Assembly: GCA_030390025.1 (NCBI GenBank)
Contig: CM059432.1
Coordinates: 33,482,001-33,546,000 of the forward strand
Source: Squalus acanthias
Lineage: Eukaryota
DNA length: 64,000 nucleotides
Reading direction: 5' to 3'
Shown: in pieces, positions 1,597 through 62,583 of the stretch
Numbering within the stretch: the first letter of the stretch is position 1
Layout: each line of letters begins with the position of its first letter
The notes under the pieces: generated by a model
What the model was told of the DNA's origin: nothing
The model's input: only the letters and a program-made list of their open reading frames with translations
Database searches by the model: none
Position numbers and translations under genes: made by a program

Positions 1597-2153
1597 GAAA
1601 CAACCTCTCAGCATCTACCCTGTCAATCCCCTTCAGAATCTTGCATGTTTCAATGAGATCACCTCTCATTCTTCTAAACTCCAGAGAGTATAGGCCCATT
1701 ATACACAATCTCTCATCATAGGACAGCCCTCTCATCCCAGGAATCAATCTAGTGAACCTTTGTTGCACCGCCTCCAAGGCAAGTATATCCTTCCTTAGAT
1801 AAGGAGACCAAAACTGTGCACGGTTCTCCAGGTGTGGTCTCACCAAGGCCCTGTACAATTGTAGCAAGACTTCCTTACTCTTATACTCCAACCCCCTTGC
1901 AATAAAGGCCAACATGTCATTTGCCTTCCTTACTGCTTGCTGTACCTGCATGCTAGCTTTCTGTGTTTCTTGCACGAGGACACCCAAATCTCTCTGAACA
2001 CCAACATTTGAAAGTTTCTCACCATTTAAAAAATATTCTGTTTTTCTATTCTTCCTACCAAAGTGAATAATCTCACATTTCCCTACATTATACTCCATCT
2101 GCCACCTTAATGCCCACTCACTTAGTCTATCTATATCCCTTTGTAGACTCTTT

Positions 2154-2824
2154 GGGCTGGATTTTCATTGACCCGTGGAGGTGGGTTTGGAGGCGTGTGG
2201 GGGGTTAAAATTGCAAAAACTGGCGGGTGGGCACAAGCCCGCCTCCACGCAATTTTCATTAAATTGTGTCTGCTGGTCCCGACTCCATCCCGCCTCTAAG
2301 AGGCGGGATAGGCTGTTAAGGCCCTTAACAAGCACTAAATTGCCTCTATAATGCCATTTTGAAAGGCCTTTGTGATTTTAACCCTTTTTCTACGTGAAGC
2401 ACGCCTGTTCTGAACCACGAATGTGAAACCTGGCGGGAGCACGGCTGGCTAGCTGGCTGGCTGGCTGGCTGATATGGGAGACATATCTGGGTGTGGTGGT
2501 GAATGGGAGACATATCTCAGAGTGCTGGTGCAAAAATATCTGGGAGCAGACTTAGGGCTGCTGCTGCTCATTTTGCATCCAGGTCCTCTCACAGCAAAGG
2601 CCAGGCAGTCTTTGCAGACCTTCAATGCAGCAGCAATGATGACATCATCAGAGGCGACTTTCAGACTGAAAACACTAATTGGGTCATGGGTTCCCACATA
2701 CTGGAACTCAATTGCCCAATTAGGTGAAAATCGCATCAATCTCCCACATCCAATTGCAGCCGGGTGGATAACACGAAAAGTGGATAACACGACCCCAACC
2801 CGCCCCAGTATCAAAATCCAGCCC
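2154..2824. mobile_element. Non-autonomous PIF/Harbinger-type element (MITE)
   Basis: 12-bp TIR GGGCTGGATTTT/AAAATCCAGCCC; 3-bp TSD TTT (2151-2153, 2825-2827); removal restores CR1 RT; possible Myb-ORF start relic MSSSSPKSAPRYF on the minus strand. Confidence 0.88.
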
Positions 2825-4156
2825 TTTGTGTTCTCCTCACAGCTTACTGTCTCACCTAGATTTGTATCGTCAGCAAACTTGAATACATTACACTTGGTCC
2901 CTTCATCTAGGTCATTAATATAGATTGTAAATAGCTGAGGCCCCAACACTGATCCTTGCGGCACCCCACTAGTTACAGCCTGCCAACCTGAAAAAGGTCC
3001 GTTTATCGCTACTCTCTGTTTTCTGTCCGTTAACCAATCCTCTATCCATGCTAATATATTACCCCCAACCCCATGAGCCCTAATCTTGTGTAATAATCTT
3101 TTATGTGGCACCTCATCGAACGCCTTTTGGAAATCCATATATACTACATCCACTGGTACCCCTTTAACTACCCTGCTAGTTACATCCTCAAAAAACTCTA
3201 ATAAATTTGTCAAACACGATTTCCCTTTCATAAAACCATGTTGACTCTGCCTAATCATGTTATGATTTTCTAAGTGCCCTGATACCACTTCCTCAATAAT
3301 GGATTCCAGCATTTTCCCGATGACTGATGTCCGGCTAACTGGCCTGTAGTTTCCTGTCTTTTCTCTACCTCCTTTCTTGAATAGCGGTGTTACATTTGCA
3401 ACTTTCCAATCTGCTGGGACCGTTCTAGAATCTAGGGAATTTCGGAAGATCAAAACCAATGCATCCACTATCTCTTCAGCCACCTCTTTTAGAACCCGAG
3501 GATGTAGGCCATCAGATCCAGGGGATTTGTTGGCTTTTAGTCCCATTAGCTTCTCTAGTACTTTTTCTCTACTTATATTAATTACACTAAGTTCTTCACC
3601 CTCATTAGACCCTTGGTTCCCCACCATTTTTGGTATGCTTTTTGTGTCTTCTATTGTGAAGACAGATACAAAATGTTTAACGTTTCTGTCATTTCCTTAT
3701 TCCCCATAATAATTTCTCCTGTCTCAGCCTCTAAGGGACCAACGTTTACTTTTGCTATTCTCTTCCTTTTTACATACTTGTAGAAGCTCTTACAATCTGC
3801 TTTTATATTTCTTGCTAATTTTCTCTCATATTCTATTTTTTCCCTTTTTATCAATTTTTTGCTCATCCTTTGCTGGTTTCTGAAACTCTCCCAATCGTCA
3901 GGCTTACTACTATTCTTTGTAACATTATAAGCTTCTTCTTTCAATCTAATGCCATCTTTAACTTCTTTAGTTAGCCACGGTTGGATCACTTTTCCCATGG
4001 AGTTTTTGTTTCTCAATGGAATGTATTTTTGTTGAGAATTATGAAATATTTCTTTAAATGCTAGCCAATGTTTATCATACCTTTTAATCTATTTTTCCAA
4101 TCTACCTTAGCCAACTCGCCCCTCATACCTATGTAATTGGCTTTATTTAAGTTTAA

Positions 4157-5049
4157 GGGGGAAAAATTCAGTCACGCCCCGTTTGGGGCGCAAATATCAT
4201 CCGGGCGCAAAGATTAGCGCCTGGCGCTAATTATCGCCACTGACTGGAAACTTCACTTTTAACGCCCCGGGAGGTGATTGGAGCACTAAATCAGGCGCTG
4301 CACACCTGTCTTAAGGCGCAAAGGCCGAGGAGTGAGGCGCTAACTCAGAGCGCTGGCGAAGCTCATGTAATGTCAGTCAGCAATGGAACACACACACAAT
4401 GGCACGGGCCAGTTCTTAAAGGGGATGGTTGATCTTGCTTTCCATCCACATCCTGCTCATTGCAGCCTTGAATCTCGGCCTGGAGAGACCTGCACATCAA
4501 ATCTGCTGGAAAGAACAATGGAGAGTACCAGGCAAAGAGCTCAGAATGCAGCCCCCACAGTCTCTTCTAAATCGATACAAGGAATGGCAAATCAAAATGA
4601 ACCTGCAAAGTGCTGCTCAGTACCCAAAACTCCTTCACACAACGTTGAATCTCTCCAGAAGTCTCTCTCACTCTCTCTCAGAATGCGTAGTTCAAAAATG
4701 GCACCAACAATAAAAGGCAGGAAGCGGTCACCTTTAAATAGCGCTCCCCCTTTCCCTTCATGACAGAAGAACGCTCCTATCAACCTGTCGTTGCTAGCGT
4801 CAGGCGGTAAGGCAGGGGGCGCCACTCAATATCCGCTCCGGGGCGATACCGGGGCATTGCACACTCGTCTGACGTCACGATCTGCCAGCGCAGGAGATCG
4901 TGGCGGTAGTGTTTAGCGCCGCCGCAAAATGTCTAGTTAATTTCGCGAGCGGCGCAAACTTCGCCGCGCCCGGGCGCTAGCTGCTTTGCGCCCCATTAGC
5001 GCCCTCTTAAGGCGCTAACGGGAGGCGCAACCAACTGAATTTTTCCCCC
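4157..5049. mobile_element. Non-autonomous PIF/Harbinger-type element (MITE), GCGC-rich
   Basis: Perfect 16-bp TIR GGGGGAAAAATTCAGT; TSD TAA (4154-4156, 5050-5052); interrupts CR1 ORF2. Confidence 0.92.
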
Positions 5050-5975: not shown

Positions 5976-6851
5976 TTAAGTGGAGCCCGTCCCGATGGAA
6001 CAGCTCCCTCTTTCCCCAGTAGTGGTGCCAGTGCCCCATTGAAACCCCTTCTTCCCACAACACTCTATGAGCCACGCATTTAACTCTCTGATCTGCTTGA
6101 CCCTATGCCAATTTGCGCATGGCTCAGGTAGTAATCCAGCGATTATTACCCTTGAGGTTCTGCTTATCAATTTAGACCCTAGCTCCTCAAACTCCCTCAG
6201 CAGAACCTCATTCCTAGTTCTACCTATGTTGTTGGTTCCTACGTAGACCACGACAACTGGATCCTCCCCCTCCCACTCCAAGTTCTTCTCCAGCCATGAG
6301 GAGATATCCTTAACCCTGGACATAGCCTTCGGGACTCTCTTTCGCGGCTGCAGAGAACAGTATCTATCCCCCTGACTATACTGTCCCCTACTACTACCAC
6401 ATTCCTTCCTTCTACCCCCACTTGGATGGCCCCCTGTACCACGGTGCCGTGGTCAGTTTGCCCATCCTCCCTGCAGACCTTTTCCTCATCCATACAGGTA
6501 GCAAGTACCTCGTACCTGTTGGACAAGGTCCAGGGCTGAGGCTCCTCCATCACTACATCCTGGGTCCCCATACCTTCCTGACTTGCCATCATACCCTCCT
6601 GTCCCTGACCACTGACGAACTCTAAAGTACTACTTAACCTAAAGTGTGTGACTGCCTCCTGGAACAAAGTCCAGGTAACCCTCCCCCTCCCTGATGCATC
6701 GCAATGTCTGCAGCTCGTACTCCAGCTCAACAATTCTGAGCCGAAGCTCCTCGAGTTGCAGACACTTACTGCAGATGTGGTTGCTCGGGATCGCGATGCT
6801 CTCCACAAACTCCCACATGCTGCAGTTACGACACACCACCTGCCCTACCAT
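5976..6851 (-). pseudogene. CR1 ORF1 relic: Cys/His zinc-binding motif, leucine coiled coil and SGNH esterase-like domain
   Basis: CRNCSMWEF..HICSKCLQLEELRLRIVELEYELQTL; VVVVGDSIVRGID (GDS block); VYVGTNNIG (GxN block); frameshifted. Confidence 0.85.
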
Positions 6852-8923: not shown

Positions 8924-9287
8924 CAGGAAACTCTTTATTAACCGGCACTGACGGGACCGGCGTGGTGCCGGTTAATCAAAAAGTCCGGATAACGGAGAGT
9001 TATATCTCCCAACGTACGAGAGCCCCGTACACACTGACATGCGCCTGCATTCGGAGCTCCGTCTCCCCGGGGACCGCCAGCTGACCATCTGTCGTGTCCG
9101 CTGCCTACCCGGGCTGCACATTCCCCTCCCAATCTACATGCTCCGATACAAGGCAAACGCCTTGGGGTTTTTTAAAAAGTTATTTTTAAAGGAGAGATGA
9201 AGGAAAACCCCGGTTACCTACTCAAGAATTTTGCCGGTTAAGAGAGATTTCCGGTTATTTGGGTGCCGGTTAAAAGAGAGTTTCCTG
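8924..9287. mobile_element. Tc1/mariner-superfamily (pogo/Tigger-like) MITE
   Basis: 25-bp TIR CAGGAAACTCTYTWTTAACCGGCAC (2 mismatches); TA TSD at 8922-8923 and 9288-9289; internal CCGGTTA repeats. Confidence 0.88.
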
Positions 9288-10200: not shown

Positions 10201-10664
10201 CAGCACAAACGATTAGAGAATCAGCAGTTTGACATCTCTCGGAGGATCCAGGCTTCTTGTGCGTGGACTGGAACTGAATAGAAGCTTTCTTCAAAAGGGA
10301 TTGGGGATTCAGTGAAGGTCCAATGAAGACAATCCACATAGCCAACAGACTGCCTTGCATCTAACCATCTCGGAATAGCCCAGACCTTTGTTTCCGACCT
10401 TTCACTGTCACAACCTTTCTCTGTTTTTTTTTGATACAATGATCATTCCTCCTATTAACTTTCATGTACTGTTCCTCCTCAGCAACAAATATGCCATCCC
10501 ACACACTCTTCTGCCTTTCTGGATTCTTACTGTGTTAAAATCATAACTCGTTGCACAGTCTTCCATGCTAACTCATTCTTTCCCAGGATTTTGAAAATGT
10601 GGAACACTTTACATCCCTCAGTCTTCACTTTGTCCTACAGCCTTGAGGCTTTTAAAGCCTAAAC

Positions 10665-10935
10665 TGTAGTAGTTATGTTACTGGACTAGTAATCCAGACA
10701 ACATGAGTTCAAAGCCCACCATTACAGTTCGAGAATTTGAATTCAGTTTTCTTTTAAATCTGGAAATAATATCATAAAACCCAACTGGTTCACTAATGTC
10801 CTTCAGGAAAGGAAACCTGCTGTCCTTACCCTGTCTGGCCTACATGTGACTCCAGACCCACAGCAATGTGGTTGAATCTTAACTGCCCTCTGAAATGGCC
10901 TAGAAAGCCACTCAGTTGTATCAAACTGCTACAAG
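10665..10935 (+). mobile_element. SINE family B, partial
   Basis: Similar to 7127-7440. Confidence 0.75.
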
Positions 10936-11360
10936 GACATATCTGCTACAAGGGAGTACATTCAGCACGCGGGCAGCCAACCCGTTGCCAGGAGGCGGGT
11001 TGTCATTTTAAATATGATAATCATAGAATCATAGAATGGTTACAGCACGGAAGAAGACCATTCGGCCCGTCGAGCCAATGCTGGCTCTCTGCAAGAACAC
11101 CTCAGCTAGTCCCACTCCCCCGCCATTTCCCCGTAGCCCTGCAAATTTTTTTCTTTCAGGTACTTATCAAACTCCCTTTTGAAAGTCGTGATTGAATCTA
11201 CCTCCACCACCCATTCAGGCAGTGCATTCCAGATGCTAACCACTTGCTGCGTATAAAGGTTTTTTCTTATGTCGCCTTTGCTTCTTCTGCCAATCACCTT
11301 AAATCTGTGTCCTCTGGTTCTCGACCCTTCTGCCAATGGGAACAGTTTCTCTCTATCTAG

Positions 11361-11497
11361 ACACAAAAGGCATCAAGGGGTATGGGGAGAGAGCGGGAAT
11401 GTGGTATTGAGATAGAGGATCAGCCAGGATCATATTGAATGGCGGAGCAGGCTCGAAGGGTCGAATGGCCTACTCCTGCTCCTATTTTTCTATGTTT
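11361..11497 (+). mobile_element. Very short CR1 3' end inserted in copy A
   Basis: CR1 3'UTR stem-loop plus TTTCTATG tail, opposite orientation to the host; TCTATCTA at both junctions. Confidence 0.8.
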
Positions 11498-11778
11498 CTA
11501 TCTACTCTGTCCAGACCCCCCTTGATTTTGAACACCTCTATCAAATCTCCTCTCAATCTTCTCTGCTCCAAGGAGAACAACCCCAGCTTCTCCAGTCTAT
11601 CCACGTAAATGAAGTCCCTCATCCCTGGAATCATTCTTGTAAATCTTTTCTGCACCCTCTCTAAGGCCTTCACAACCTTCCAAAAGTGCAGTGCCCAGAA
11701 TTGGACACAATACTCCAGTTGAAGCCGAACCAGTGTTTTATACAGGTTCATCATAATTTGCACACTTTTGTACTCTAT

Positions 11779-13721
11779 GGCCTCGATTTTGTCAATGGGG
11801 ACGTGATGGAGGCGGGACTTCCACTTTTTGGGTTGTAGTCCCGCCTCCATCGATTTGTGGCCAACCCACGCTACATGCCCTTGATTGACCTTGTGAAGCC
11901 CGCCCAGCGGGCTCAGCAGGCCAATTAAGGGACACCTGGATACTGGTGACATCAGCGATTGACATTTCATCTGTTAAGAGCTTTTGACAGATGAAATATC
12001 AGCGTTTGACAGCTCTGTGAAGCTGTCTAACACTGACAATCTGTTTTCTAACTTGAGTCCTTCTACTCAGACTCAGTTAGAGAGCTTTCCAGACCAAAAA
12101 GCAGAGGCTGCAGCTTTTGACAGTTCAGCGGCCATTCTGCTTTCTGTGCCGGTGAGCTGAGGGACTCCCGAGAACTGAAGGGAGGAAGCCTGGAGGAGAA
12201 AGTAAAGGTAAGTAAAACTTATTAAAACACTTTACACACACCAAACACACTTACCTCTGCACTCATGGACCCATCACTCACCTGTACACTGGACATCTCG
12301 ACCCCTCCAAGCCCTGCAGACCGACGGTCCGCCTCGCTAACTTGGCGTGGTTTAGAAACATAGAAACATAGAAGATAGGAGCAGGAGTAGTCCATTCGGC
12401 CCCTCGAGCCTGCTCCGCCATTCAATGCGATCATGGCTGATCATCCAAATTCAGAACCCTGTCCCTGCTTTCTCCCCATATCCCTTGATCCCTTTAGCCT
12501 TAAGAAATATATCCAACTCCTTCTTGAATATATTTAATGAATTGGCCTCTACTTCCTTCTGTGGTAGAGAATTCCATAGGTTCACCACTCTCTGGGTGAG
12601 GAAATTCCTCCTCATTTCTGTTCTAAATGGCTTACCCCTTATCCTTAGACTGTGACCCCTGGTTCTGGACTCCCGACCATCGGGAACATCCTTCCTGCAT
12701 CTAGTCTGTCCAGTCCTGTCAGAATTTTATAAGTTTCAATGAGATCCCCTCTCATTCTTCTAAACTCCAGCGAGTATAAGCCCAATCGACGCAATCTCTC
12801 CTCATACGTCATTCCTGCCATCCCAGGTATCAGTCTGGTGAATCTTCGCTGAACTCCTTCCATGGCAAGAACCTCCTTCCTCAGATAAGGCGACCAAAAC
12901 TGCACACAATACTCAAGGTGTGGTCTCACCAAGGCCCTGTACAACTGCAGCAAGACATCCTTGTTCCTGTACTCAAACCCTCTCGCTACGAAGGCCAACA
13001 TACCATTTGCCTTCTTAACCGCCTGCTGCACCTGCATGCTTACCTTCAGCGACTGGTGCACAAGGACACCCAGGTCTCGTTGCACTTCCCCTTCTCCCAA
13101 TCTATTGCCATTCAGATAATAATCTGCCTTCCTGTTTTTGACACCAAAGTGGATAACCTCGCATTTATCCACGTTATATTGTATCTGCCATGCTTCTGCC
13201 CAATCACCCAACCTGTCCAAATCATCCTGGAGTTTCTCGGCATCCTCCTCACAGCACACACGCCCACCCAGCTTTGTGTCGTCTGCAAACTTGGAGATAT
13301 TACATCTAGTTCCCTTGTCTAGATCATTAATATATATTGTGAATAGCTGGGGTCCAAGGACCGATCCCTGCGGTACCCCACTAGTCACTGCCTGCCACTC
13401 GGAAAAAGACCCGTTTATTCCAACTCTTTGCTTTCTGTCTGCCAAGCAGTTTGGAGCCGTCGGGCAGCCCACACTTCAGGGCTAAAAATAGGGATTAGCC
13501 AAAAAACTGCCTGTTAAATACCTGTTAACAGGCAGTTAATTGGCACTAATCCCCTTCCCGCCTCGGGGAGGCGGCTCCCAGCACAGGTTGGGTACCCGCC
13601 TCCTGGGACATTGGCATGGAGGCGGGTTGGGGGCAGGATGGGTACGTGCCCCCCGAATCTGCAATTTTCCCACCACTCCCGCCTCCAAACCCGCCTCCAC
13701 GGGGCTTGGAAAATCGAGCCC
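11779..13721 (-). mobile_element. PIF/Harbinger-type MITE in CR1 copy A, itself split by a CR1
   Basis: TIR GGCCTCGATTTT/AAAATCGAGCCC; TSD TAT (11776-11778, 13722-13724); homologous to 57574-58418. Confidence 0.9.
12353..13445 (-). mobile_element. 5'-truncated young CR1, same subfamily as 796-1596
   Basis: ORF 12645-13472 RT C-terminus; (TAGAAACA)n tail; highly similar to 796-1596. Confidence 0.92.
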
Positions 13722-14132
13722 TATACCTCTATTCATGAAGCCCAGGATCCTGTAAGCTTTATTAACTGCTTTCTCAACCTGCCCTGCCACCTTCAACGAT
13801 TTGTGCACATATACCCCCAGGTCTCTCTGTTCATGCATTCCCTTTAGGATTGTACCCTTTAGTTTATATGTCCTCTTCTCATTCTTTCTACCAAAATGTA
13901 TCACTTCACACTTTTCTGCGTTAAATTTCATCTGCCATGTGTCCGCCCATTCCACCAGCTTGTCTATGCCCTCTTGAAGTCTATCACTATCCTCCTCACT
14001 GTTTGCTATACTTCCAAGTTTTGTGTCATCTGCAAATTTTGACATTGTGCCCTGTACACCCACATCCAAGTCATTAATATATATCAAGAAAAGCAGTGGA
14101 CCTAGAACCGACCCCTGGGGAACACCACTGTA

Positions 14133-16193
14133 TTTTTTTTATTCGTTCATGGAATGTGGGTGATGATGAAGGAACGGCGATATACTTCCAAGTCAGGATG
14201 GTGTGTGACTTGGAGGGGAACTTGGAGGTGGTGGTGTTCCCATGCGCCTGCTTCCCTTGTCCTTCTAGGTGGTAGAGGTCGCGGGTTTGGGAGGTGCTGC
14301 CGAAGAAGCCTTGGCGAGTTGCTGCAGTGCATCTTGTAGATGGTACACACTGCAGCCACGGTACGCCGGTGGTGGAGGGTGTGAATGTTTAGGGTGGTGG
14401 ATGGGGTGCCAATCAAGCTGGCTGCTTTGTCCTGTATGGTGTCGAGCTTCTTGAGTGTTGTTGGAGCTGCACTCATCCAGGCAAGTGGAGAGTATTCCAT
14501 CACACTCTTGACTTGTGCCTTGTAGATGGTGGAAAGGCTTTGGGGAGTCAGGAGGTGAGACACTCGTCACAGAATACCCAGCCTCTGACCTCCTCTTGTT
14601 GCCGCAGTATTTATGTGGCTGGTCCAGTTAAGTTTCTGGTCAATGGTGACCCCCAGGATATTGATGGCGGGGGAATTCAGCGATGGTAATACCGTTGAAT
14701 GTCAAGGGGCGGTGGTTAGATGCTCGTTTGTTGGAGATAGTCATTGCCTGGCACTTCTGTGGCATGAATGTTACCTGCCACTTACCAGCCCAAGCCTGAA
14801 TGTCGTCCAGGTCTTGCTGCATGTGGGCATGGACTGCTTCATTATCTGTGGAGTTGTGAATGGCACTGAACACTGTGCAGTCATCAGTGAATATCCCCAC
14901 TTCTGACCTTATGATGGAGGGAATGTCATTGATGAAGCAGCTGAAGATGGTTGGGCCTAGGAGACTGCCCTGAGGAACACCTGCAGCGATGTCCTGGGGC
15001 TGTGATGATTGACCTCCAACCACCACAACCAACTTCCTTTGTGCTAGGTATGACTCCAGCCAGTGGAGAGCTTTCCCCCCGATTCCATTGACTTCAGTTT
15101 TACTAGGGCTCCTTGATGCCACACATGGTCAAATGCTGCCTTGTTGTCAAGGGCAGTCACTCTCACCTCACCTGTGGAATTCAGCTCTTTTGTCCATGTT
15201 TGGACCAAGGCTGTAATGAGGTCTGGAGCCGAGTGGTCCTGGCGGAACTCAAATTGGGCATCAGGGAGCAGGTTATTGGTGAGTAAGTGCTGCTTGATAG
15301 CACTGTCGACGACACCTTCCATCACTTAGCTGATGATTGAGAGTAGACAGCTCAAAACTGGGTAATTGGCTGGATTGGATTTATCCTGCTTTTTGTGGAC
15401 AGGACATACCTGGGAGGTTTTCCACATTGTCGGGTAGATGCCAGTGTTATAGCCGTATTGGAACAGCTTGGCTAGAGGCGCGACTAGTTCTGGAGCACAA
15501 GTCTTCAACACGACAGCCGGGATGTTGTCAGTACCCATAGCCTTTGCTGTATCCATTGCGCTCAGCTGTTTCTTGATATCACGTGGAGTGAATCGAATTG
15601 GCTGAAGACTGGCTTCTGTGGTGGTGGGGACCTCAGGAGGAGGCCGATATGGATCATCCACTCGATACTTCTTTTGCACTCACCTGCTGGGCTCCACCAT
15701 CATTGAGGATGGGGATATTCATGGTGCCTCCTCCTCTCGTTAGTTGTTTAATGGTCCACCACCATTCACGACTGGATGTGGCAGGACTGCAGTGCTTTTA
15801 TCTGATCCATTGATTGTGGGTTCGCTTAGCTCTGTCTTAGCATGCTGCTTCCGCTTTTTAGCATGCCTGTAGTCCTGTGTTGCAGCTTCCCCAGGTTGGC
15901 ACCTCATTTTTAGGTACTGCTGCTTGTGGCATGCTCTTCTACACTCCTTATTGAACCAGGGTTGGTCCCCTGGCTTGATGGTAATGGTAGAGTGAGGGAT
16001 ATGCCGGGCCATGTGGTTACAGATTGTGGTGGAATACAATTCTGCTGCTGCTGATGGCTCACAGCGCCTCATGGATGCCCAGTTTTGAGCTGCTAGGTCT
16101 GTTCTGCATCTATCCCATTTAGCACGGTGGTCATGCCACACAACACGATGGAGGGTGTTCTCAGTGTGAAGACGGGACTTCGTCTCCACAGTG
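14133..16193 (-). mobile_element. Second, distinct CR1-group LINE (RT fragment) nested in copy A
   Basis: KSNPANYP, ALDNKAAFD, GVPQGSLLGP, FTDD, KAQVKSVMEYSP motifs; A-rich tail; TSD ACTGTA at 14127-14132 and 16194-16199; 3'UTR largely deleted. Confidence 0.88.
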
Positions 16194-17684
16194 ACTGTAC
16201 CCTCCTCCAGTCCGAAAAACAACCATTCACCACTACTCTCTGTTTCCTGTCACTTAGCCAATTTCATATAAATGCTGCCACTCTCCCTTTTATTCCATGG
16301 CCCTCAACTTTGCTGGCAAGCCTATTATGTGGCACTTTGTCGAACGCCTTTTGGAAATCCATGTACACCATGTCAACCGCATTGCCCTCATTAACCCTCT
16401 CTGTTACCTCATCAAAAAACTCGATCAAGTTGGTTAAACACGATTTGCCTTTAACAAATCCATGCTGACTTTCCTTAATTAATCCACACTTGTCCAAGTG
16501 ACTGTTAATTTTGTCCCTGATTATTGTTTCTAAAAGCTTCCCCACTACCGAGGTTAAACTGACTGGCCTATAGTTGCTGAGTTTATCTTTATACCCTTTT
16601 TTGAACAAGGGTGTCACATTTGCAATTCTCCAGTTCTCTGGCACCACCCCTGTTTCTAAGGAGGATTGGAAGATTATGGCCAGTACCTCCGCGATTTCTT
16701 CCTTCACTTCCCTCAGCATCCTAGGATGCATCCCACCCAGTCCTGGTGACTTATCTACTTTAAGTACAGCCAGCCTTTCTAATACCTCGTCTTTATCAAT
16801 TTTTATCCCATCCAGTATCTCCTCTACCTCCTCCTTCATTATGTCTATGGCAGCATCTTCCTTGGTGAAGACAGATGCAAAGTACTCATTTAGTACCTCA
16901 GCCATACCCTCTGCCTCCATGCGTAGGTCTCCTTTTTGGTCCCTAATCGGCCCCAACCCTCCTCTTGCTACCCGTTTACTATTTATATGCCTATAGAAGA
17001 CTTTTGGATTACCTTTATGTTAGCTGCCATTCTATTCTCATACCCTCTTTTTGCCCTTCTTATTTTCTTTTTCACTTCTCGTCTGAACTTGCTATATTTA
17101 GCCAGATTCTCAGATGTATTCTCGACCTGACATTTGTCATACCCGCTCTTTTTCTGCTTCATCTTACTCTCAATCTCTTTCGTCATCCAGGGAGCTCTGA
17201 CTTTAGTTGCTCTACCTTTCCCCCTAGTTGGAATGTGCCTTGACTGTACCTGAACTATTTCCTTTTAAGGCAGCCCATTGTTCCACTACGGTTTTGACTG
17301 CCAATCTTTAATTCCAGTTTACCCGGGCCAGATCTGTTCTCATCCCACTGAACTTGGCCTTCCTCCAATTAAATATTTTTACTCTAGCTTGCTCCCTGTC
17401 CTTTTCCATAGCTAATCTAATCCTTATGATACTATGATCATTGTTTCCTAACTGTTCACCTACTGACACTTGCTCCATTTGACCTACCTCATTTCCCAGA
17501 ACTAGATACAGCAATGCCTCCTTCCTCATTGGGGCAGAAACATACTGATCAAGAAAATTCTCCTGAACACTCTTCAGAAATTTTTCCTCCTTTCTGTATT
17601 TACACTATTACTAGCCCAGTCTATATTAGGATAGCTGAAGTCCCCCATTATCACTGCTCTATAGTTCTTGCAGCTCTCTGTAAT

Positions 17685-18129
17685 GAGGCCTGAAGCCTCT
17701 GCTTTAACCTGCTGTGCAGGTTTTACTGCAGCCCACCGGGGATCCCGGGCCTCAGGATTCTGGTTGCTACAGTGAGGTGGACACAGCCTCGGAGCGCAAT
17801 CCTTGTGGCCCGGGAGGAGCAGGAGTGCTTCCCGGGATCAGGAATTGGAGCCCCCCACAGGGATCGGACCCCTGCTCCCATCCCCCCCCCCACCGGGCTT
17901 GGAACCACCCCCTCCCCCCTTGGACCCAGCATCTACCTGTTGCTGCAGCGTCCTGTCCAGCCAGCGTTTCCCGCCCGACTGGAAGCCAGCCTGTCAATCA
18001 GGAACCCACCCATTACGTCACACGCACGCTGTGCTCCACAGAGTGCCGGGAAACTTGGGCTTCCGGGTTTACCGTGGTCTACCGGCCGCCCCCCACTCCG
18101 GATGGGTTGGAAACAGGAAAATCCAGGCA
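17685..18129. mobile_element. GC-rich Harbinger-type MITE, right part (left part probably 10950-11017)
   Basis: Ends AAAATCCAGGC; carries the GGAGGAGCAGGAGTGCTTCC motif; TTTTAAATATGATAA|TGAGGCC joins across CR1 copy A. Confidence 0.6.
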
Positions 18130-18332
18130 ATAGACGGAGTTTGCACCGATGTTACAGTGGCGGAGAAGTCCACAGGAAATTCACCCCCATAGTTCAGTAG
18201 CACAAAGATACTAATAATTCAACGCAACTTTAATCTAAGTTACCAATCTCAATTAGACAGGACAGCTGATGGGGGACACATGTGCAGTAGGGGGTCACTC
18301 TTTTAATACATGAATTAAAACGTATTATTGGA

Positions 18333-37477: not shown

Positions 37478-38015
37478 AGTGTAGAAATTGGTGTGCATTG
37501 CACCCGGTATTCGGGTGTACAATGGGTGCAAAGCACACCAATTTAGCAGTGGGACAGCCTGCGCCATTTTTAAAGTGTCCTGGGCGGACATCTAAAACAG
37601 GCTTTGAGCTCCTTAAATATGTTAAAGGTCCCTGCTACAAAATTTGTCCCTCCGGATTCCTTAGCGCCCCCAAAAGTGAAGTTTTTAAAATATTTTTTAA
37701 AAAAAACTATCTGTAGAGCCAGGAAGAGCAGGATGGCTCCCCTCGACTCCATAGTGTTGGCGCTCACCCCCTCCCCCCACCCCTGTTGCCTGCCATTCCC
37801 CTTCCCCCCCCCCCCACAGAACTTACCTGAGGACTGCTGCTGAGGGCCCGAAATTAATTTTCTCATAGGGCCTGCAGAGGGGCAAAAACTCCCACAGCTT
37901 TCCCAGATGTAGATGAGGCCTGAGGCCATTCCGAAATTACGCCTTGGGCCCCATATCTGTTTGCGCACACGCTGAGTCTAGGCCCAAAAGTGAGCACAGC
38001 CTAATTTCTACCCCC
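37478..38015. mobile_element. Harbinger-type MITE, degenerate TIRs
   Basis: GTAGAAATTGG..CTAATTTCTAC ends; internal GAAGAGCAGGA and CTTACCT motifs. Confidence 0.6.
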
Positions 38016-40295: not shown

Positions 40296-40584
40296 ACAGT
40301 CAACTGAAGAGTCCTTTTTTTCCCCAAATGTCTTCCTTCTTCTCCTAAAGGAGGTGGCTATTGTCAAATATCCAGTCTTAAATGAGCCACAATTTCCTCC
40401 AGCTAAACATGGTAGGACTAAAGCTATCCGCTTTCATCAGACGTGAGGGGTGTGGGTGAGCGACAGGCCTGTCCCAATAGCTCCTTATGTGGCTCGGTGT
40501 CAATTTTTGACTGATTGCACTCCTGTGAAGTGCCTTGGGATGTTTTACTACGTTAAAAGTGCTATGTAAATGCAAGTTGTTGTG

Positions 40585-41161
40585 AGACCCAGAGCAATTT
40601 TAACTCCCGGGCCTCATTTCCATATCCGAGCTCTGACTCCTGCCCAAACCCGACAAGAATCACTGGCTGGCCGGTGGGTGTCTGTGGAAATTCGGGTGGG
40701 AGGAGGCCACCGCCAGGGACCCACAAGAGCGGTCCCCAGCACTCAGGTAAGCGGTGAGGTTGGGCTCCTGGAGGAGCACTCCCGCACCTCCTGGCCCACA
40801 AGGAAATTTAAAGAAAATGTAAACTCACCCGACCGGGCCTCTTCTGGCCCTCGATCCAGTTCCAGGCAGGTTTTCCCTGGCGAGGAAGTCATCACCGCTG
40901 CCCCGCTCCGGCCTCAGGTTAAATTAGCAGATCGGGCCCCGATGACATCACATGAGCCCGACCTGCATATTTTAAAAGGATCCCTCCGGCTTGGGACGGG
41001 CGTTCCTGCCGCCTGAAATGTAGAATTGCAGTCTCGGTCAGATCGGGACGGGAAACGAGTGGGTAAGTCCCCCGTTCAATTTTAACTGCCCCCAGCCTGG
41101 TTTCCGCTAGGCAGGGGTTGGGGGCGGGGGGAGGGGGCTGCGCGGAGTTAAAATCGGGGCC
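40585..41161. mobile_element. Harbinger-type MITE (right TIR clear)
   Basis: Ends GTTAAAATCGGGGCC; internal GAGCACTCCCGCACCTCCTGGCCCAC motif and CAGGTAAG. Confidence 0.6.
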
Positions 41162-44300: not shown

Positions 44301-44918
44301 CCAAGCAACGGGCCCAAGGCCCAGTCCATCACGGGACCTAAAAGTAACCGAAAAAAAACTCCTCCCAGACGGATGCTTCTAACGTAGCATGACATAATTC
44401 CTCCTTCATTGGATGTTTGCTTTATTAGTGCTACTAAATAAGTGCAAACAGTTGTTATCCCAGTGACATTAGTGTCGATTACTCCACACACGGGCAACAT
44501 AAACAGGAACATTTCTTCTTTCCTCTCCCCATCCCCCCTCGGCACGGTAATTAAATCTATTCGGGGTTTATGCCCTGTCAACGCGGGAATTAATTGGTGG
44601 CTGCTCTCTGTGAACCCTAGGCACATGGGCTGAAATATTGTGAATCAGTTAACAAGTTTAATGAATAACATCATTCTTCTGCTATGGTGGCAAAAGTGAC
44701 GACAGCACGAAAAAAAAATTATAGGCAAGGTAAAGATTAAAATTCCATTCATGTATTAAAGTTCCCTCTATGATCGTTTCATTCTTCTGTGTTGCTCAGT
44801 GTAAATATAATCCGCTTTTTGCACTCCGTGTGGCCTCTGAAAATATAGGATAACACCTACTGAGGAATGTCGCTAAGGTATTAACCCTTCCCCATCCAGT
44901 GTTGACAATGTACAGTGT

Positions 44919-45024
44919 GTGGTAATTTTGACTTTGGACCATGACTTCAATGGAAATGAAAATCGGGAGAGATGTCGATTCGCTATCGCCTGTTTTCCAC
45001 TACCGGTCAAAGTCAAAATCACCC
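44919..45024. mobile_element. ~105-bp miniature TIR element; related remnant at 34330-34432
   Basis: GGTAATTTTGACTTT..AAAGTCAAAATCACC inverted ends; TGACTTCAATGGAAA core shared with 34335. Confidence 0.6.
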
Positions 45025-45085
45025 TCAATGTGAGTCATAAAAGTTTTAAAAAATTGAACAGAAACCCAAAGACAAAGGCCTGTAG

Positions 45086-54519: not shown

Positions 54520-54840
54520 ATCACCTCTTACAGAAGGTGGGTACTGCAGGGAATTCAGGGCCAGAGTGATCTCCTGGATTAGTTTCGATCACCTAGATGA
54601 GTCGGAGAGCAATGTCCCAGATTTTTTCCCCAAATTGGTGTGGGTTTTTACCTGTTTTTTTGCCTCTCCCAGGAAACATGTGTTCTCCTGGGAGAGGCAA
54701 AAAAACAGATAAAAACCCACACCAATTTGGGGAAAAAATCTGGGACATTGCTCTCCGACTCATCTAGGTGATCGAAACTAATCCAGGAGATCACTCTGGC
54801 CCTGAATTCCCTGCAGTACCCACCTTCTGTAAGAGGTGAT
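54520..54840. repeat. 321-bp near-perfect palindrome of CR1 3'UTR-like sequence
   Basis: 155-bp arms 54520-54674 and 54686-54840, one mismatch seen, 11-nt spacer. Confidence 0.97.
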
Positions 54841-55029: not shown

Positions 55030-55637
55030 GGGGGGAAAATTGGCTCACGCCCCCTTTGGGGCGATTACTTCGCTGGGGTGTTACTTTTCGCGCCCCAAAA
55101 AAGTTAGAGCCCACGCGCCCGAAATTCATGGGGCGCTACTGGAAGCGCTCCCCCTCCCTCTTTTGCGGCGCTACATGCAGCAGCGCCATGCGCGCCGGCA
55201 CGTAGCGCCACGGTACTGCAGGCCTCCCTCCCCTGATTAAAGGGGAGGGGCCTAGCGCAGTGCACACCGGGGCCCTGCTGGACCACCGGGGAGTGGGGAG
55301 CCGGCAAAAGAGCCCGGTACTCAAGAGGAGTGTCGGGCTGCCCGATCGCGGCCGGCATCCCGCAGGAGGAGGCCAGAGGGGGGCAGGTGCTGGCAGGTGG
55401 CCCAAAAAAAAATGGCTGCCCGGCGCCTGCCCTTTAATTATCGCCGCCCCGGCCGCAAAAATGCCACCCATACCCTGTCGGATATAGCGTCCGGCGGTAG
55501 GTCAGGGGCGCGAGCCGAGTTTGCCGCTGTGGTGCTGAATTTCGCGGGAGGCGTTAGTGGCGCCGCACCCGGGTGCTAGTTGCTTTATGTCCCGTTACCA
55601 CTAACGGGAGGTGCAAAGCAATTGAATTTTACTCTCC
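55030..55637. mobile_element. PIF/Harbinger-type MITE related to 4157-5049
   Basis: Starts GGGGGGAAAATTGGCTCACGCCCCCTTTGGGGCG (cf. 4157); imperfect right TIR; TSD CAA (55027-55029, 55638-55640); removal restores GAA AAC AAA TGT. Confidence 0.8.
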
Positions 55638-55751: not shown

Positions 55752-58700
55752 GTTAAGGGCAGAGAAGGGGAAGAATTTCTGGTGTGTTCAGGAGAACTTT
55801 CTTGATCAGTATGTTTCCGACTCGACGAGGAGGGAGGCATTGCTGGATCTGGTTCTGAGGAATGAGGTAGGTCAAGTGGAGCAAGTGTCAGTAGGTGAAC
55901 ATTTAGGGAACAGTGATCATAGTATCATAAGGATTAGATTAGCTATGGAAAAGGACAGGGAGCAATCTAGAGTAAAAATGTTTAACTGGGGAAGGCCAAT
56001 TTTCAGTGGGATGAGAACAGATCTGGCCCAGGTAAACTGGAATCAAAGATTGGCAGGCAAAACTGTAATGGAACAACGGACTGCCTTTAAAGAGGAAATA
56101 GTTCAGGTACAGTTGAGGTACATTCCCACTAGGGGGAAAGGTAGGGCAACTAAAGTTAGGGCTCCCTGAATGACGAAAGAGATAGAGAATATGATGAAGC
56201 AGAAAAAGGGCGCGTATGACAGATGTCAGGTTGCAAATACATCTGAGAATCAGGCTATATATAGAAAGGTCAGAGGAGAAGTGAAAAAGAAAATAAGAGG
56301 GGCAAAGGGAGGGGATGAGAATAGAATGGCAGCCAACATAAAAGGTAATCCAAAAGTCTTCTATAGGCATATAAATAGTAAACGGGTAGTAAGAGGATGG
56401 GTGGGGCCGATTAGGGACCAAAAAGGAAACCTATGCATGGAGGCAGAGGGTATGGCTGAGGTACTAAACGAGTACTTTGCATCTGTCTTCACCAAGGAAG
56501 AGGATGCTGCCATAGACATAGTAAAGGAGGAGGTAGTGGAGACACTTGATAGGATAAAAATTGATAAAGTGGAGGTATTAGAAAGGCTGGCTGTACTTAA
56601 AGTAGATAAATCACCAGGAGCAGATGGGATGCATCCTAGGATGTTGAGGGAATTGAGGGAGGAAATTGTGGAGGTACTGGCCATAATATTCCAATCCTCC
56701 TTAGATATGGGTGTGGTGCCAGAGGACTGGAGAATTGCAAATATTACACCAGTGTTCAAAAAAGGGGTGTAAAGATAAACCCAGCAACTACAGGCCAGTC
56801 AGTTTAACCTCAGTAGTGGGGAAGCTTTTAGAAACAGTAATCAGGGACAAAATTAACAGTCACTTGGACAAGTGTGGATTAATTAAGGAAAGCCAGCACA
56901 GATTTGTTAAAGACAAATCGTGTTTAACTAACTTGATTGAGTTGTTTGATGAGGTAACAGAGAGGGTTGATGAGGGCAATGCGATTGACATGGTGTTCAT
57001 GGATTTCCAAAAGGCGTTCGACAAAGTGCCACATAATAGGCTTGCCAGCAAAGTTGAAGCCCATGGAATAAAAGGGACAGTGTCAGCATGGATATAGAAT
57101 TGGCTAAGTGATAGGAAATAAAGAATAGTAGTGAACGGTTGTTTTTCGGACTGGAGGAAGGTATACAGTGGTGTTCCCCAGGTGTCAGTTCTAGGTCCAC
57201 TGCTTTTCTTGATATATATTAATGACTTGGACGTGGGTGTACAGGGCACAATTTCAAAATTTGCAGATGACACAAAACTTGGAAGTATAGTGAATAGTGA
57301 GGAGGAGAGTGATAGACTTCAGGAAGACATAGACAGGCTGGTGGAATGGGCAGACACGTGGCAGATGAAATTTAATGCAGAAAAGTGTGAAGTGATACAT
57401 TTTGGTAGAAAGAATGAGAGAGGACATATAAATTAAATGGTACAATCCTGAAGGGGGTGCACGAACAGGGAGACCTGGGGGTATGTGTGCACAAATCGTT
57501 GAAGGTGGCAGGGCAGGTTGAGAAAGCAGTTAAAAAGGCTTACGGGATTCTGGGCTTCATAAATAGAGGTATAGGGGGCGATTTTGCCAGCCCTGGGGAC
57601 GTGGGTATGGAGGCGGGTCTGCCAGGAAAATGGCAGAATTTGGGGGTGGGTGCCCAACCCGCCCCCAACCCGCCTCCATGCCATCTTCCTAGGAGGCGGG
57701 TAGCCATCCCGCGCTGGGTCCCGTCTCCTTGGAGGCGGGAAGGGATTAAAGCCTATTAACTGCCTGTTAACAGGTAGTTAATAGGCAGAAAATAGGATTA
57801 TCCACTTTTTGCCCTCACAAGTGCGGGCTTCCCGAAGGCTCCGAAACCCCCCAGGTCACCGAGGCGAGTAGGGTGTCTGCGGGGGTCGGGGGCGTGCAAA
57901 AGTGTGCGGTGAAGGTAAGTGATGGGTGCAAGAGTGGAGAGGTGAGTATCTGAGGTAAGTGGAAAGTGTTTTTAAAAGTGTACTTACCTTTGTTTCTTCC
58001 TGCAGGCTTCAGTCGGGTTGTATGCGGAGAGTCTTGGACCTCCGCGTTGGGAATGACAGATGGCCGTTGCATTCACAGATGCAACAACCATCTCATTTCT
58101 GTAACAGAAAGAAGTTTGATGGGCTCTTGTATTCAAGACGTCATCAAACTGCAGAGAATGTCACTGTTTGACAGCTTCACAGAGCTGTCAAACGATGACA
58201 ATTCACCTGTCAAAAATTTTTGACAGATGAAACATCATACGTTGACATGCTCAGCAACCGGCTTTCCCTTAATTGGCCTGCTAAGTCCGCTGGGTGGGCT
58301 TAACCAGGTAATTCAAGGGAAAATAGCGTGGGTTGGCCAGAAGTTGTTGGAGGCGGGACTGAAACCCGACAAGTGGGAGTCCCGCCTCCAAAAGCTCCCC
58401 ATTGGCAAAATCACCCCCATAGAGTACAAAAGTGTGGAAATTATGATGAACCTGTATAAAACACTGGTTCGGCCCCAACTGGAGTACTGTGTCCAATTCT
58501 GGGCACCACACTTTAGGAAGGATGTGAAGGCCTTAGAGAGGGTGCAGAAAAGATTTATGAGAATGTTTCCAGGAATAAGGGACTTCAGTTATGTTGATAG
58601 ACTGGAGAAGCTGGGGTTGTTCTCCTTGGAGCAGAGAAGATTGAGAGGAAATTTGATAGAGGTGTTCAAAATCATGAGGGGCTGAACAGAGTAGATAGAG

Positions 58701-59031
58701 GGAAACTGTTCCCATTGGCGGAAGGGTCGAGAACCAGAGGACACAGATTTAAGGTGATTGGCAAAAGAACCAAAGGCGACGTAAGAATAAACTTTTTTAC
58801 GCAGCGAGTGGTTAAGATCTGGAATGCACTGCTTGAAAGGGTGGTGGGGGCAGATTCAATCACAGCTTTCAAAAGTGAGTTGGATAAGTATCTGAAGGAA
58901 ATAAATTTGCAGGGCTACAGGGAAAGGGCAGGGGAGTGGGACTAGCTGAAGTGCTCTTGCAGAGAGCCGGCATGGGCTCGACGGGCTGAATGGCCTTCTT
59001 CCATGCTGTAACCATTCTATGATTCTATGAT
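55752..59031 (+). mobile_element. CR1 LINE copy B, same subfamily as copy A
   Basis: ORF2 pieces 55760-57573 and 58419-58945; (TTCTATGA)n tail. Confidence 0.92.
57574..58418 (+). mobile_element. PIF/Harbinger-type MITE in CR1 copy B
   Basis: TIR GGGGGYGATTTTGCCA; TSD ATA (57571-57573, 58419-58421). Confidence 0.92.
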
Positions 59032-59915: not shown

Positions 59916-59927
59916 TTTGGATACTCG

Positions 59928-60552: not shown

Positions 60553-61740
60553 GTGCTGCCTTTGAAAGGGTAGGTAGGGACTGAGGGGAACCTTAATGAA
60601 AGTCTGGCTTTTACGGCTTCTAATGGGGATTTAATCATTTGAAGCATGGAATGGTTGCTAGGCCTTCACTTATTCATCCAGCCTGGGAAATCATCTTAAA
60701 GGGACTATTGTGGGGAAGTAATGGCTGATTCCGCACCGCACAGCATGTTTAGATTAAGATAACATATGAAATCATTTCCATCGTATAAATCATCTCATTA
60801 TGTAGTGAAATAGTAATTTTGATATATAGGATGCTCACATTATATTTCAATGTGAAATCCTGCTTTATCATTATTTGGAGGAAGCAGATAAAGTTCTGTG
60901 GCTGCCAAGCAATTTACTTAACAGGAACAGGCCGTTATTTGAAATAAATGTGAAAACATGCCATCGAATCTTAAAAAAAACTAGTCAGCTCTCTTGTTTT
61001 TTATTTACAAGCGAATGAAGGAATATATTAGATAAGGAAATTTGCCTGGCTGTGCTATTCCAAGATTGTAGGATTTCAAAATAGACCACAAGATGGATTG
61101 TGGCTTGTTACATTGCAGTGGATGGGGTCGGAGGGTTGAGGAGGGGGCCCGGTTCCATCAAATTTTGTAGCAAGGCCTAGGTAGGCCTGATTCCCTCTGA
61201 ATAAATAATTGGAAGAGCACCCACTGCACCTGCTCTGCCAGTAGGTAGAAGCCTCACAAGGGACAGAGGGCTGCACAGGATTTGGTGTTCTGCTCTATCT
61301 CAGCTATCATTACATGCAAAGACACAGTGGAAATTTGGAGTTTGGATTTAATGGTCAACTGCTCGGTTGTCATGGGGAAACTGCTGTAAGGGGGTGGGAA
61401 GTGGCATCACCACTCAGCAACGTGTATTGCCCAGGATGTGCTTTGTGCAATGCTGTAATGTGAATGTGCTACCTTCTAGGCAACAGCTGTCACCCGCTGT
61501 TGCTGAGAGAACAAATCCTCTTTGGGCAAAAAAATAAACAGAGTAATTCTGTCACACGCGAAGCAGCTTACATCTTCACATATTTCTATTTGTTACTCAA
61601 ACTAGAGCTTGATCCAAATCGACTGATGTCATTGCTAATGAACTAGAACAGTAGACACAAGACATATGGGCCAGACATTTTTTTGGAATGTTGTTTGTTG
61701 GGGCTGGGAGATAGGATGATGGCAGCAGAGGGCCAATAGG

Positions 61741-61875
61741 AAAGTTAGGCCCAGGCCGGAGAGATGCAAAAGTTAGGCCCAGGCCGGAGAGATGCAAAAG
61801 TTAGGCCCAAGCCGGAGAGATGCAAAAGTTAGGCCCAGGCCGGAGAAAAGGAAAAGTTAAGCCCAGTCTGAGAGA
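61741..61875 (+). repeat. 28-bp tandem repeat, ~4.5 copies
   Basis: AAAAGTTAGGCCCAGGCCGGAGAGATGC; GTTAGG at 61744, 61772, 61800, 61828. Confidence 0.95.
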
Positions 61876-61951
61876 CACAAACCACAGAGTTAGACTCAGG
61901 ACTGAGAGATACAAGACTAAGAGTTGGAGCCAGGCATCAGAGAGAAACAAT

Positions 61952-62583
61952 GGGGTTGATTTTAACCTGCAGGCAGGTGGATGGTGTGGCAAGTGCGAAA
62001 TGCAACCACAGGCCTAAGTTTGAGCCCTGGAGTATTGTAACTCCTGTGCCTCGTATGTGTGCCAAATGGACGGAAAGCAGCAGCTGGCCATTGGACCAGT
62101 GGTTACCAGCTGTTACCAAGGGAATACTCTCCAGCAAGCAAGTGAGTAACAGGGAGGACATTTCAGGAGGGTTTCATGGGACGGAAGGGAGGGAAGTCTG
62201 AGCCAGGGGAGGCCATGACCTTCCTGCTCCTCCTGGCTGCACAAAGGAAAGCTTGTTACTTACCATGGAGGGCCTCTTCATCCTTCCCGAAATGCCAGCC
62301 TGCCCTCACCTAGTAGGATAGCCATGGAAGCTTTCGCGCTCAGGCTTGGGTTAAAGTGCAATCGGGGTCCCATTGACGTGATAGGCCCCTGATATGAATA
62401 AATTCACAAGGCTCCCACCTGCTTATGGCGGGCGCCTCATCCCCCTCATCCCCATAACCGCAGTAAGCAGTTAAAATGGTGGCCAGCGTGATTCTAGCGG
62501 GAACAAGGAAGTACCTCTCAATGCTTCATTTTAAAAGCCCCCCTCTCTGTTCCTTTCAGGTGGGCTGGGTTAAAGGTGACTCC
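61952..62583. mobile_element. Harbinger-type MITE, degenerate
   Basis: Left end GGGGTTGATTTTAACC; internal CCTGCTCCTCCTGGC and CTTACC motifs; weak right TIR. Confidence 0.55.

Follow-up and report, generated by a model that had tools for sequence, protein, structure and literature searches.

Several MITE families appear to share an extended, loosely palindromic insertion target in CR1 hosts

Across the window, by which we mean the whole 64,000-nucleotide stretch of DNA analyzed, several MITE families appear to prefer one landing sequence of ~17 bp, a loose palindrome approximating TRGASWY-NNN-RWSTCYA, the letters of which are provisional. Just four verified, mutually independent CR1 sites, occupied by at least two element families, define the motif, and its span of -7 to -1 was picked post hoc. 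The elements themselves look like non-autonomous PIF/Harbinger-type (PHIS) MITEs, a membership that we only infer, since no transposase was found in the frames scanned. As a whole, we consider it probable that PHIS MITEs make a 3-bp cut, read a flanking palindrome, and generate repeat hotspots as a by-product.

Five Verified Elements in CR1 Hosts

Both TIRs and a matching 3-bp TSD were found for five elements within the window (TSDs TTT, TAA, TAT, ATA, and CAA), out of eight two-ended candidates. An initial annotation of this DNA had counted about a dozen TIR elements with TSDs; the flank letters it quoted are present, but beyond the five its entries are single ends or have unmatched TSDs. An unbiased scan for a TIR plus an exact 3-bp TSD returned 214 pairs, mostly chance, four real elements among them; the fifth, E11, had its bounds set by hand, with a right end accurate to ±1 nt. 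Strands are given below only where assigned. E1 (2154-2824) is a 671-bp MITE with TIR GGGCTGGATTTT, in which 14 of 16 bases pair, flanked by TTT at 2151-2153 and 2825-2827 in a minus-strand CR1 ORF2; one of its ends is related to E3/E4. E2 (4157-5049; 893 bp, TSD TAA) likewise lies in a minus-strand CR1 ORF2, has a perfect 16-bp TIR (16/16), and is related to E11 (55030-55637; ~608 bp, TSD CAA), which sits in another CR1 fragment. E3 (11779-13721, minus strand; TSD TAT, 12/16 TIR bases paired) is a MITE of ~843 bp interrupted by a nested CR1 3' fragment (12350-13449, minus strand) with an RVT_1 match, and E4 (57574-58418, plus strand; TSD ATA, 15/16 paired) is an 845-bp MITE in CR1 ORF2. The TIRs measure 12-16 bp and start with GG at 10/10 ends. 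All five elements lie within ORF2 of CR1-type LINEs, at four distinct sites; E3 was dropped from the half-site counts because it occupies the same site as E4, which stands for both.

CR1-clade LINEs are characterized by an ORF2 with a reverse transcriptase, an esterase-like ORF1, and a 3' tail of short repeats, and we take the host LINEs to belong to this clade. A Pfam scan gave RVT_1 matches in the CR1 hosts and a GDSL-like match at 5979-6452 (E 1.6e-4) that is weaker than the Pfam cut-off; Rfam at gathering score gave no matches across the window. The host of E3 (11020-17680, minus strand) carries further nested insertions at ~11360-11496 and 14133-16198. That of E4 (55760-59031, plus strand) is 91-93% identical to it, the similarity ending at the 3' tail, and terminates in an octamer tail at 59010-59031.

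When each element and one TSD copy are excised in silico, a stop-free frame runs over the junction in all five cases. The empty site of E3 was also observed in contigs of public runs placed on 10640-14140: among the 15 joints listed (with 4,708 more), the empty-site join occurs in 4, 7, 12, and 30 contigs of four runs, and in 4/4 runs these contigs skip 1946 bases, equal to 1943 + 3. Among the same joints, a skip of 1099 across the nested CR1 fragment occurs in two runs (10 and 11 contigs), and the 24 loose contig ends listed on this interval (with 16,334 more) include no break at a MITE end or B-box. The verified elements are non-coding, TIR-bounded, and repeated, as is characteristic of MITEs, and contigs of three public runs stack on the E3 sequence. 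In run X6, from organism B, E3 cover is close to nil (0-148 over 11810-12277 and 42 over 13565-13681, vs. at least 0.5 million in CR1 bins), and these E3 bins have a cover of 0.2-2.9 million in runs X5, X17, and X21. The pattern hints at an E3 expansion restricted to a lineage; contigs show presence only and depth gives no copy number, and it was not counted as evidence.

An Extended Target Outside the TSD

The half-sites of the four distinct sites have A at -4 in 8/8 cases (p 2.8e-5) and T at -7 in 7/8, and TAGA occupies -7 to -4 on one side of all four, vs. 100 of 8,640 CR1 positions. When four CR1 sites were drawn at random 200,000 times, no draw had a 4-mer common to all members at one offset. 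With leave-one-site-out profiles over -7 to -1, the held-out sites ranked 11, 18, 14, and 20 of 8,640 CR1 positions (combined p 3e-8), placing every site within the top 0.13-0.23%. Over -4 to -1, the span originally proposed, leave-one-out gave p 2e-5, vs. p 0.83 for a control window at -10 to -8. The earlier proposal that specificity resides outside the TSD is, for the most part, upheld. The center is not the flat NNN that had been suggested, as 11 of 12 TSD bases at the four distinct sites are A/T. Moreover, the 55027 site and the AGGT side of 13722/57571, previously set aside as misfits, both obey the longer motif.

A common extended motif is real, as first proposed, but the letters given to it, ACWC-NNN-GWGT, were over-fitted and have been rejected: exact ACWC occurs at 7/11 ends listed in the initial annotation and at 0/10 held-out, unlisted ends. 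Several of the latter are degenerate, perhaps not genuine termini; W-2/C-1 occurs in five of the ten (p 0.004), and W-2/Y-1 in nine, vs. 30/166 weak TIR-like controls (Fisher p 5e-6; pattern post hoc). A at -4 is found at 11/11 listed ends vs. 4/10 held-out ends, the chance level, and the outer part (-7 to -5) is unenriched in 14 single or unmatched ends, except at the two B-box ends and 62583. The disappearance of ACWC from the unlisted ends is what would be seen if the flank similarity were a selection artefact, read by eye in a repeat-rich window. We find this scarcely credible, as sites picked by TIR and TSD alone cross-validate against the CR1 background and the W-2/Y-1 excess is seen in held-out ends.

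One CR1 Base Probably Hit Twice

E3 and E4 lie at the same CR1 base in the same orientation, with MITEs that are 73% identical in hosts that are 91-93% identical. The MITEs differ at 187/741 non-CpG columns and the hosts at 170/2,320 (p 8e-35); the best-kept ends of the MITEs alone differ at 77/380 (p 4e-13). With hosts far closer than the MITEs at their shared base, E3 and E4 are probably independent insertions, and the recurrent landing pads claimed initially stand to this extent, that one CR1 base was probably hit twice. Alternatively, both could stem from one insertion, either carried in a CR1 source copy or spread by duplication or gene conversion, with one MITE later overwritten; the motif would then be real, and a CR1 hotspot not demonstrated. 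The two share base, orientation, MITE family, and CR1 subfamily and are 45 kb apart; both hosts have T at -1, where the CR1 copy at 28740, near-identical at this site and empty, has C; and 2/2 window copies of this host subfamily are filled. We nevertheless regard a single insertion as unlikely: over their full length the MITEs have diverged more than three times as much as the hosts, transversions affect 117/741 columns in the MITEs vs. 58/2,320 in the hosts, the 3' flanks past the CR1 tail differ, and contigs with the empty E3 CR1 site are present in all four public runs. A segmental duplication extending beyond CR1 was rejected on these differing flanks.

Under a profile that excludes it, the shared site ranks 4 of 2,401 in its host, and only 134 of 2,409 with the pooled -4 to -1 profile. 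Even the long profile assigns it ~2% of the host's weight, so a double hit by independent insertion is still somewhat lucky. The E3/E4 family could instead specialize in CR1, with a target narrow enough to place a large proportion of its copies at one ORF2 base. Of its complete copies within the window, 2/2 occupy that base, and the five verified elements all lie in CR1, where elements are also easiest to verify. Related ends lie elsewhere, however (E1 at another CR1 position, E7 in a SINE), 8/10 window CR1 copies spanning the codon are empty, and the general motif alone yields the site's rank of 4, making such specialization quite unlikely. The same low probability attaches to a Harbinger-type lineage with a transposase that ignores TSD letters and has a 17-bp flank code fitting one CR1 ORF2 codon so well that an entire MITE family resides largely inside, and disables, the dominant LINE of the genome. 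If true, a DNA transposon would here have specialized on a retrotransposon and could naturally supply an integrase that acts in vertebrates with high site specificity.

Unmatched and Single-Ended Candidates

E8 (37478-38014) and E9 (38557-40295) each have two TIR-like ends with mismatched TSDs (CTC/CGA and GTA/ACA, respectively), those of E9 flanking a GA-rich tandem expansion. E12 (61952-62583) has a good left TIR after AAAC-AAT and no exact TSD (AAT/AAA, or AAT/AGC with an alternative right end at 62484). The unmatched TSDs of these three two-ended candidates are unaccounted for by the model. Beyond the initial list, E5 (17684-18188) has an ill-defined left end and two TIR-like termini on the right, at 18129 and 18188, and E10 (40584-41161) has a TIR-like right end at 41161 and a degenerate left end.

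Positions 30568, 34431, and 32552 are single ends, which makes their "TSDs" uncheckable. The one-ended E7 (32552-33826) begins after ACAC-TGT within a SINE and is related to the end of E3/E4 that is unlike E1's; a search for its right boundary found none. E6 (29830-30568), also one-ended and related to E9, has a TIR-like end abutting TAT-GAGTTC of a headless SINE, and a search for its left boundary was likewise negative. A short degenerate element (34323-34431), related to 44916-45026 (score 46 vs. a shuffled maximum of 29), borders CGT-GAGTTC of another SINE, also headless. The idea that 32552 and 34431 bound a single element was rejected, since their flanks in the SINE lack collinearity.

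The TIR-like ends at 30568 and 34431 abut the same SINE position, and neither SINE has its head upstream; we take the site, as in the initial annotation, to be a B-box, and the head to be tRNA-derived. This site ranks 1/296 and 3/271 in two empty SINE copies, with 1/18 training half-sites coming from there. The SINE B-box flank is a plausible landing pad, the evidence being only suggestive, and this part of the original claim is unproven, with two ends abutting. The element-end motif has no matches in viral contigs and none in metagenome contigs; the SINE motif has none in viral contigs and two in metagenome contigs, where the window match spans only 23-37 bases and is uninformative.

Relationship to PIF/Harbinger Systems

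An extended target is a defining, already published trait of the PIF/Harbinger superfamily. The PIF/Harbinger-type appearance noted initially is borne out by the 3-bp TSDs, the short GG-starting TIRs, and a target preference reaching past the TSD at four sites. No transposase or Myb domain was detected in the 40 scanned of the 82 long ORFs of the window, nor in any of 59/59 in-element frames of at least 60 aa, which also gave no Pfam family above cut-off.

In the available text of PMC4482050, PHIS TIRs have G or A as first base, often GGG, and those of NuwaI span 12-61 bp and start GGG or GG(C/A); groups are set there by TSD letters, namely CWG, TNA with C/G flanks (C|TNA|G), ANT, and TWA. Our elements resemble these groups in their 3-bp TSDs, their GGG-type short TIRs (NuwaI), and the fixed bases beside the TSD (NuwaII); their TIR lengths lie inside the NuwaI range and are shorter than the 25-50 bp given in PMC9179366. 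In contrast, TTT, TAA, ATA, and CAA match no single group so described: TWA, of the classical PIF/Harbinger group (Han et al. 2015), fits one of four sites (TAA), and CWG of NuwaI and ANT of Pangu fit 0/4 verified sites each. From this mismatch, TSD letters would seem to classify poorly where flanks carry specificity. Zator and CACTA-like elements also have 3-bp TSDs, and the TSDs' lack of a clean match to any of these consensuses, together with the lack of a transposase in the frames scanned, would suit such a group, with a convergent likeness to the Harbinger target. We hold this to be highly unlikely: the TIRs start as in NuwaI, the termini are not CAC, and the flanks resemble the Harbinger3_DR target above chance.

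That target, given in the initial annotation as AAACAC-CWG-GTCTTT, agrees with a review passage (PMC3016246). The four sites share 8, 7, 6, and 6 of its 12 flank letters, vs. a mean of 3.5 for random CR1 sites (at least 6 in 1,814/20,000 draws). According to the accessible parts of PMC3016246 and PMC2836001, zebrafish Harbinger3_DR has a 15-bp target with a 3-bp CWG TSD centered in a long imperfect palindrome. Like Harbinger3_DR/Harbinger3N_DR so described, the elements here have a central 3-bp TSD in an imperfect palindrome and may be non-coding derivatives mobilized in trans. The inner half-site is A-S-A-C in Harbinger3_DR and A-S-W-Y here, within ~15 and ~17 bp, respectively; there the center is CWG and the outer part A-rich, whereas here the center is A/T-rich and variable and the outer part T-R-G. 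Unlike Harbinger3_DR in those passages, the motif is common to at least two element families, and no coding partner turned up in the frames scanned. Maize PIF/mPIF and rice Ping/mPing (Tourist-like), as covered in the accessible part of PMC2836001, are likewise MITE systems with a 3-bp TSD and a preference past it, set by element-encoded proteins; their targets are 9 bp with a TTA/TAA center and their lengths 100-500 bp, whereas here position 7 is reached and elements are 600-900 bp.

A Model of Insertion and Its Implications

In the model we favor, genes in other parts of the genome would supply a transposase and Myb-like proteins, neither being found in the window frames scanned, that mobilize the MITEs in trans. 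The integrating complex makes a 3-bp staggered cut, as the TSDs show, at an A/T-rich triplet, and reads a loose palindrome of ~7 bp per side, T-R-G-A-S-W-Y/NNN/R-W-S-T-C-Y-A, in evidence at the four sites with letters that are provisional. One strong half-site (usually TAGA at -7 to -4) with A at -4 opposite may be enough for insertion. An abundant repeat with a good match would expose the same position in each copy, and fixed-base hits would therefore gather in CR1 ORF2 and probably next to the SINE B-box. Hotspots would thus be a by-product of sequence preference, with no homing to CR1 or Pol III promoters.

As far as the literature searched shows, long targets in vertebrates were previously characterized mainly for Harbinger3_DR; that literature, with most subscription papers outside its coverage, holds no report of Harbinger hotspots in CR1 or of a shark Harbinger target. 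The advance is modest: the long Harbinger target extends to further families, where the inner half-site is conserved, the outer part differs, and the center is loose, a combination that argues against sorting PHIS by TSD letters. When separate repeat copies are hit at an identical base, the result can mimic common ancestry, a concern for insertion markers and for repeat libraries, in which a MITE and a LINE may become fused. Hotspots in repeats also offer a single target in both filled and empty form, a ready dataset to measure the target code. Harbinger was not found in elephant shark, and other cartilaginous fishes were called for (PMC9179366); PIF-Harbinger is listed for whale shark. If this is a shark genome and Harbinger membership holds, these elements would represent a large expansion.

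Verified Elements and Their Hosts

Most of the 64-kb window (46% G+C) is occupied by fragments of LINEs together with SINEs, TIR elements and tandem repeats, a repeat content that suggests a cartilaginous fish, and the evidence used here comes from this window and from contigs of public sequencing runs compared with it. A scan for TIRs with an exact duplication of 3 bp at the target site (TSD) returned 214 pairs, nearly all chance, with four real elements among them: E1 (2154-2824, TSD TTT), E2 (4157-5049, TAA), E3 (11779-13721, TAT; a CR1 piece nested inside splits it) and E4 (57574-58418, ATA). The boundaries of a fifth, E11 (55030-55637, CAA), were set by hand. All five, together 3,860 bp, lie in CR1 ORF2, and excision of the element with one TSD copy yields a stop-free frame in each. 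Contigs of four public runs (4, 7, 12 and 30 per run) cross the E3 site while skipping 1946 bases, i.e. the element plus 3. The TSD is therefore 3 bp. The elements are non-coding, TIR-bounded and inserted at a 3-bp staggered cut; neither a transposase nor a Myb domain turned up among the 40 ORFs scanned of the window's 82 long ones, or among the 59 frames of at least 60 aa within the elements. They form at least two families, E1/E3/E4/E7 (E7 being a one-ended element) and E2/E11, with the candidate or partial elements E5/E6/E9/E10 as a third group.

The initial annotation counted about a dozen elements with TSDs; five are verified, whereas about eight others are partial or doubtful. Two-ended candidates at 37478-38014, 38557-40295 (E9) and 61952-62583 have unmatched TSDs, and single ends occur at 30568, 34431 and 32552. 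Within E9 lies a GA-rich tandem expansion of ~1 kb (38824-39897).

We take the host LINEs to belong to the CR1 clade. RVT_1 is present in the host frames of the verified elements. Upstream of the ORF2 that hosts E1 and E2, a frame on the minus strand (5976-6452) has a weak GDSL esterase match (E 1.6e-4), as would be expected of a CR1 ORF1; together these fit a putative CR1 identity. Nested insertions are stacked in one CR1 copy at 11020-17680. They comprise a piece of CR1 tail, the MITE E3 with a CR1 fragment inside it, and another LINE, matched by RVT_1 at 14643-15128. Other repeats include a different TIR element at 8924-9287, starting CAGGAAACTC, with TA on both flanks by eye, which we presume to be Tc1/pogo/Tigger-like. 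A near-perfect hairpin in a CR1 fragment (54520-54840; 155-nt arms, 99% complementary, 11-nt loop) looks like a young fold-back element, and another is inserted in a SINE (26357-26544; 76-nt arms, 96% complementary). Two short inverted duplications have copies several hundred bases apart (33454-33537/34121-34204, 84 bp at 94%; 45086-45216/45834-45953, ~130 bp at 85-92%).

An Extended Target Motif

Because E3 and E4 occupy a common site, they were counted once, which leaves eight half-sites at four sites. In the direction of the element, their bases at -4 to -1 are ACTC, ACAC, AGTT, AGAC, AGGT, ACTC, AAAA and ACAT. A at -4 is invariant (8/8, p 2.8e-5), and S at -3, W at -2, Y at -1 and T at -7 each occur in seven. 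The 55027 site and the AGGT side of 13722/57571, previously set aside as misfits to a proposed ACWC-NNN-GWGT, therefore retain the best-conserved base. TAGA occupies -7 to -4 on one side of all four sites, compared with 100 of 8,640 CR1 positions, and in 200,000 random draws of four CR1 sites no set had a 4-mer in common at any single offset. When a -7 to -1 profile, a width picked post hoc with the data already seen, was trained on three sites, the fourth ranked 11, 18, 14 and 20 of 8,640 CR1 positions (combined p 3e-8). Narrower windows gave p 2e-5 (-4 to -1) and 3e-5 (-7 to -5), and the control window, -10 to -8, gave p 0.83. TSD bases are A/T in 11 of 12 cases. A flank preference is present at the four sites, with a working consensus of about TRGASWY-NNN-RWSTCYA and an A/T-rich centre.

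Exact ACWC does not extend beyond the ends from which it was drawn, occurring at 7/11 of these but 0/10 unlisted ends. In the latter, A at -4 falls to 4/10, W-2/C-1 is found in five (p 0.004), and W-2/Y-1 in nine, against 30/166 weak TIR-like controls; this inner pair is the sole part of the motif to persist. Across the 14 ends that are single or have unmatched TSDs, the outer T-R-G does not hold generally. Either other families read the inner bases alone, or some of these ends are not true junctions.

A CR1 Base Probably Used Twice

E3 and E4 sit at one CR1 base, in one orientation, in two CR1 copies that are 91-93% identical and lose their similarity at the 3' tail. One insertion common to both copies would be expected to age in step with its host, but the MITEs, at 73% identity, are far more diverged: non-CpG differences number 187 in 741 columns, against 170 in 2,320 for the hosts (p 8e-35), and even where the MITEs are best preserved, at their ends, 77 of 380 columns differ. 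Two separate insertions by different subfamilies therefore appear the better reading of these alignments. Ten CR1 copies in the window span this codon; two are filled and eight empty. This base was probably used more than once. One empty copy, at 28740, carries a near-identical site. A short pooled profile places the E3/E4 site only 134 of 2,409, while the long profile, trained with that site excluded, ranks it 4 of 2,401 with ~2% of the weight, where uniform insertion would give 0.04% per position. Most of the double use can thus be put down to ordinary target preference. The coincidence may also reflect a narrower target specific to the family, or a shared history in which one MITE was later overwritten. 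The case for one natural hotspot is fairly good.

The E3 MITE (11810-12277, 13450-13681) has heavy contig cover in runs X5, X17 and X21 and hardly any in X6, although contigs of X6 do cover its CR1 host and join from one side of the site to the other. This uneven cover is a hint, not proof, of an expansion limited to a lineage.

SINE Sites

In two of eight aligned copies of one SINE (30572, 34435), a TIR-like end lies precisely three bases ahead of GAGTTC, and these three bases are the same as in empty copies. The abutting ends (30568, 34431) come from different families. We take this position to be the B-box, a label that stays an assumption since an Rfam search of the window gave no match; the site ranks 1 of 296 in one empty SINE copy and 3 of 271 in another, a slightly circular comparison. 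Of the landing pad proposed here, two ends at an equal position stand; however, neither element has a left end and neither SINE a head, so no TSD is checkable and one has to suppose a deletion or truncation. A recurrent landing spot is suggestive only. Beside the TIR ends at 30569 and 34432, the joint losses are perhaps deletions adjoining the transposon end. Two copies of one SINE also end at an equal second position (30771, 32549), after CCCACAC or CTCACAC, followed by the E7 TIR in one and ~110 bp without a clear TIR in the other, a possible second SINE hotspot.

Relationship to Harbinger

The Harbinger3_DR target is given as AAACACCWGGTCTTT in PMC3016246. Against its 12 flank letters, the four sites score 8, 7, 6 and 6 matches, compared with a mean of 3.5 for random CR1 sites (at least six, seven and eight in 1,814, 513 and 128 of 20,000 draws). 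The inner half-site is alike, whereas the centre and outer bases are unlike. PMC4482050 sorts the PHIS superfamily into groups by the letters of the TSD, and none of these groups matches the TSDs here, although NuwaI is described there with short TIRs starting GGG, as in these elements. Given this target likeness and the GGG-type TIRs, the elements behave like Harbinger derivatives; PHIS membership is likely, with no subgroup assignable. A complex of the Harbinger kind would have moved them, reading both flanks as one loose palindrome, and repeats bearing a good match would become fixed landing spots. The extended-target behavior is real but of a known kind, here with a corrected, longer motif.
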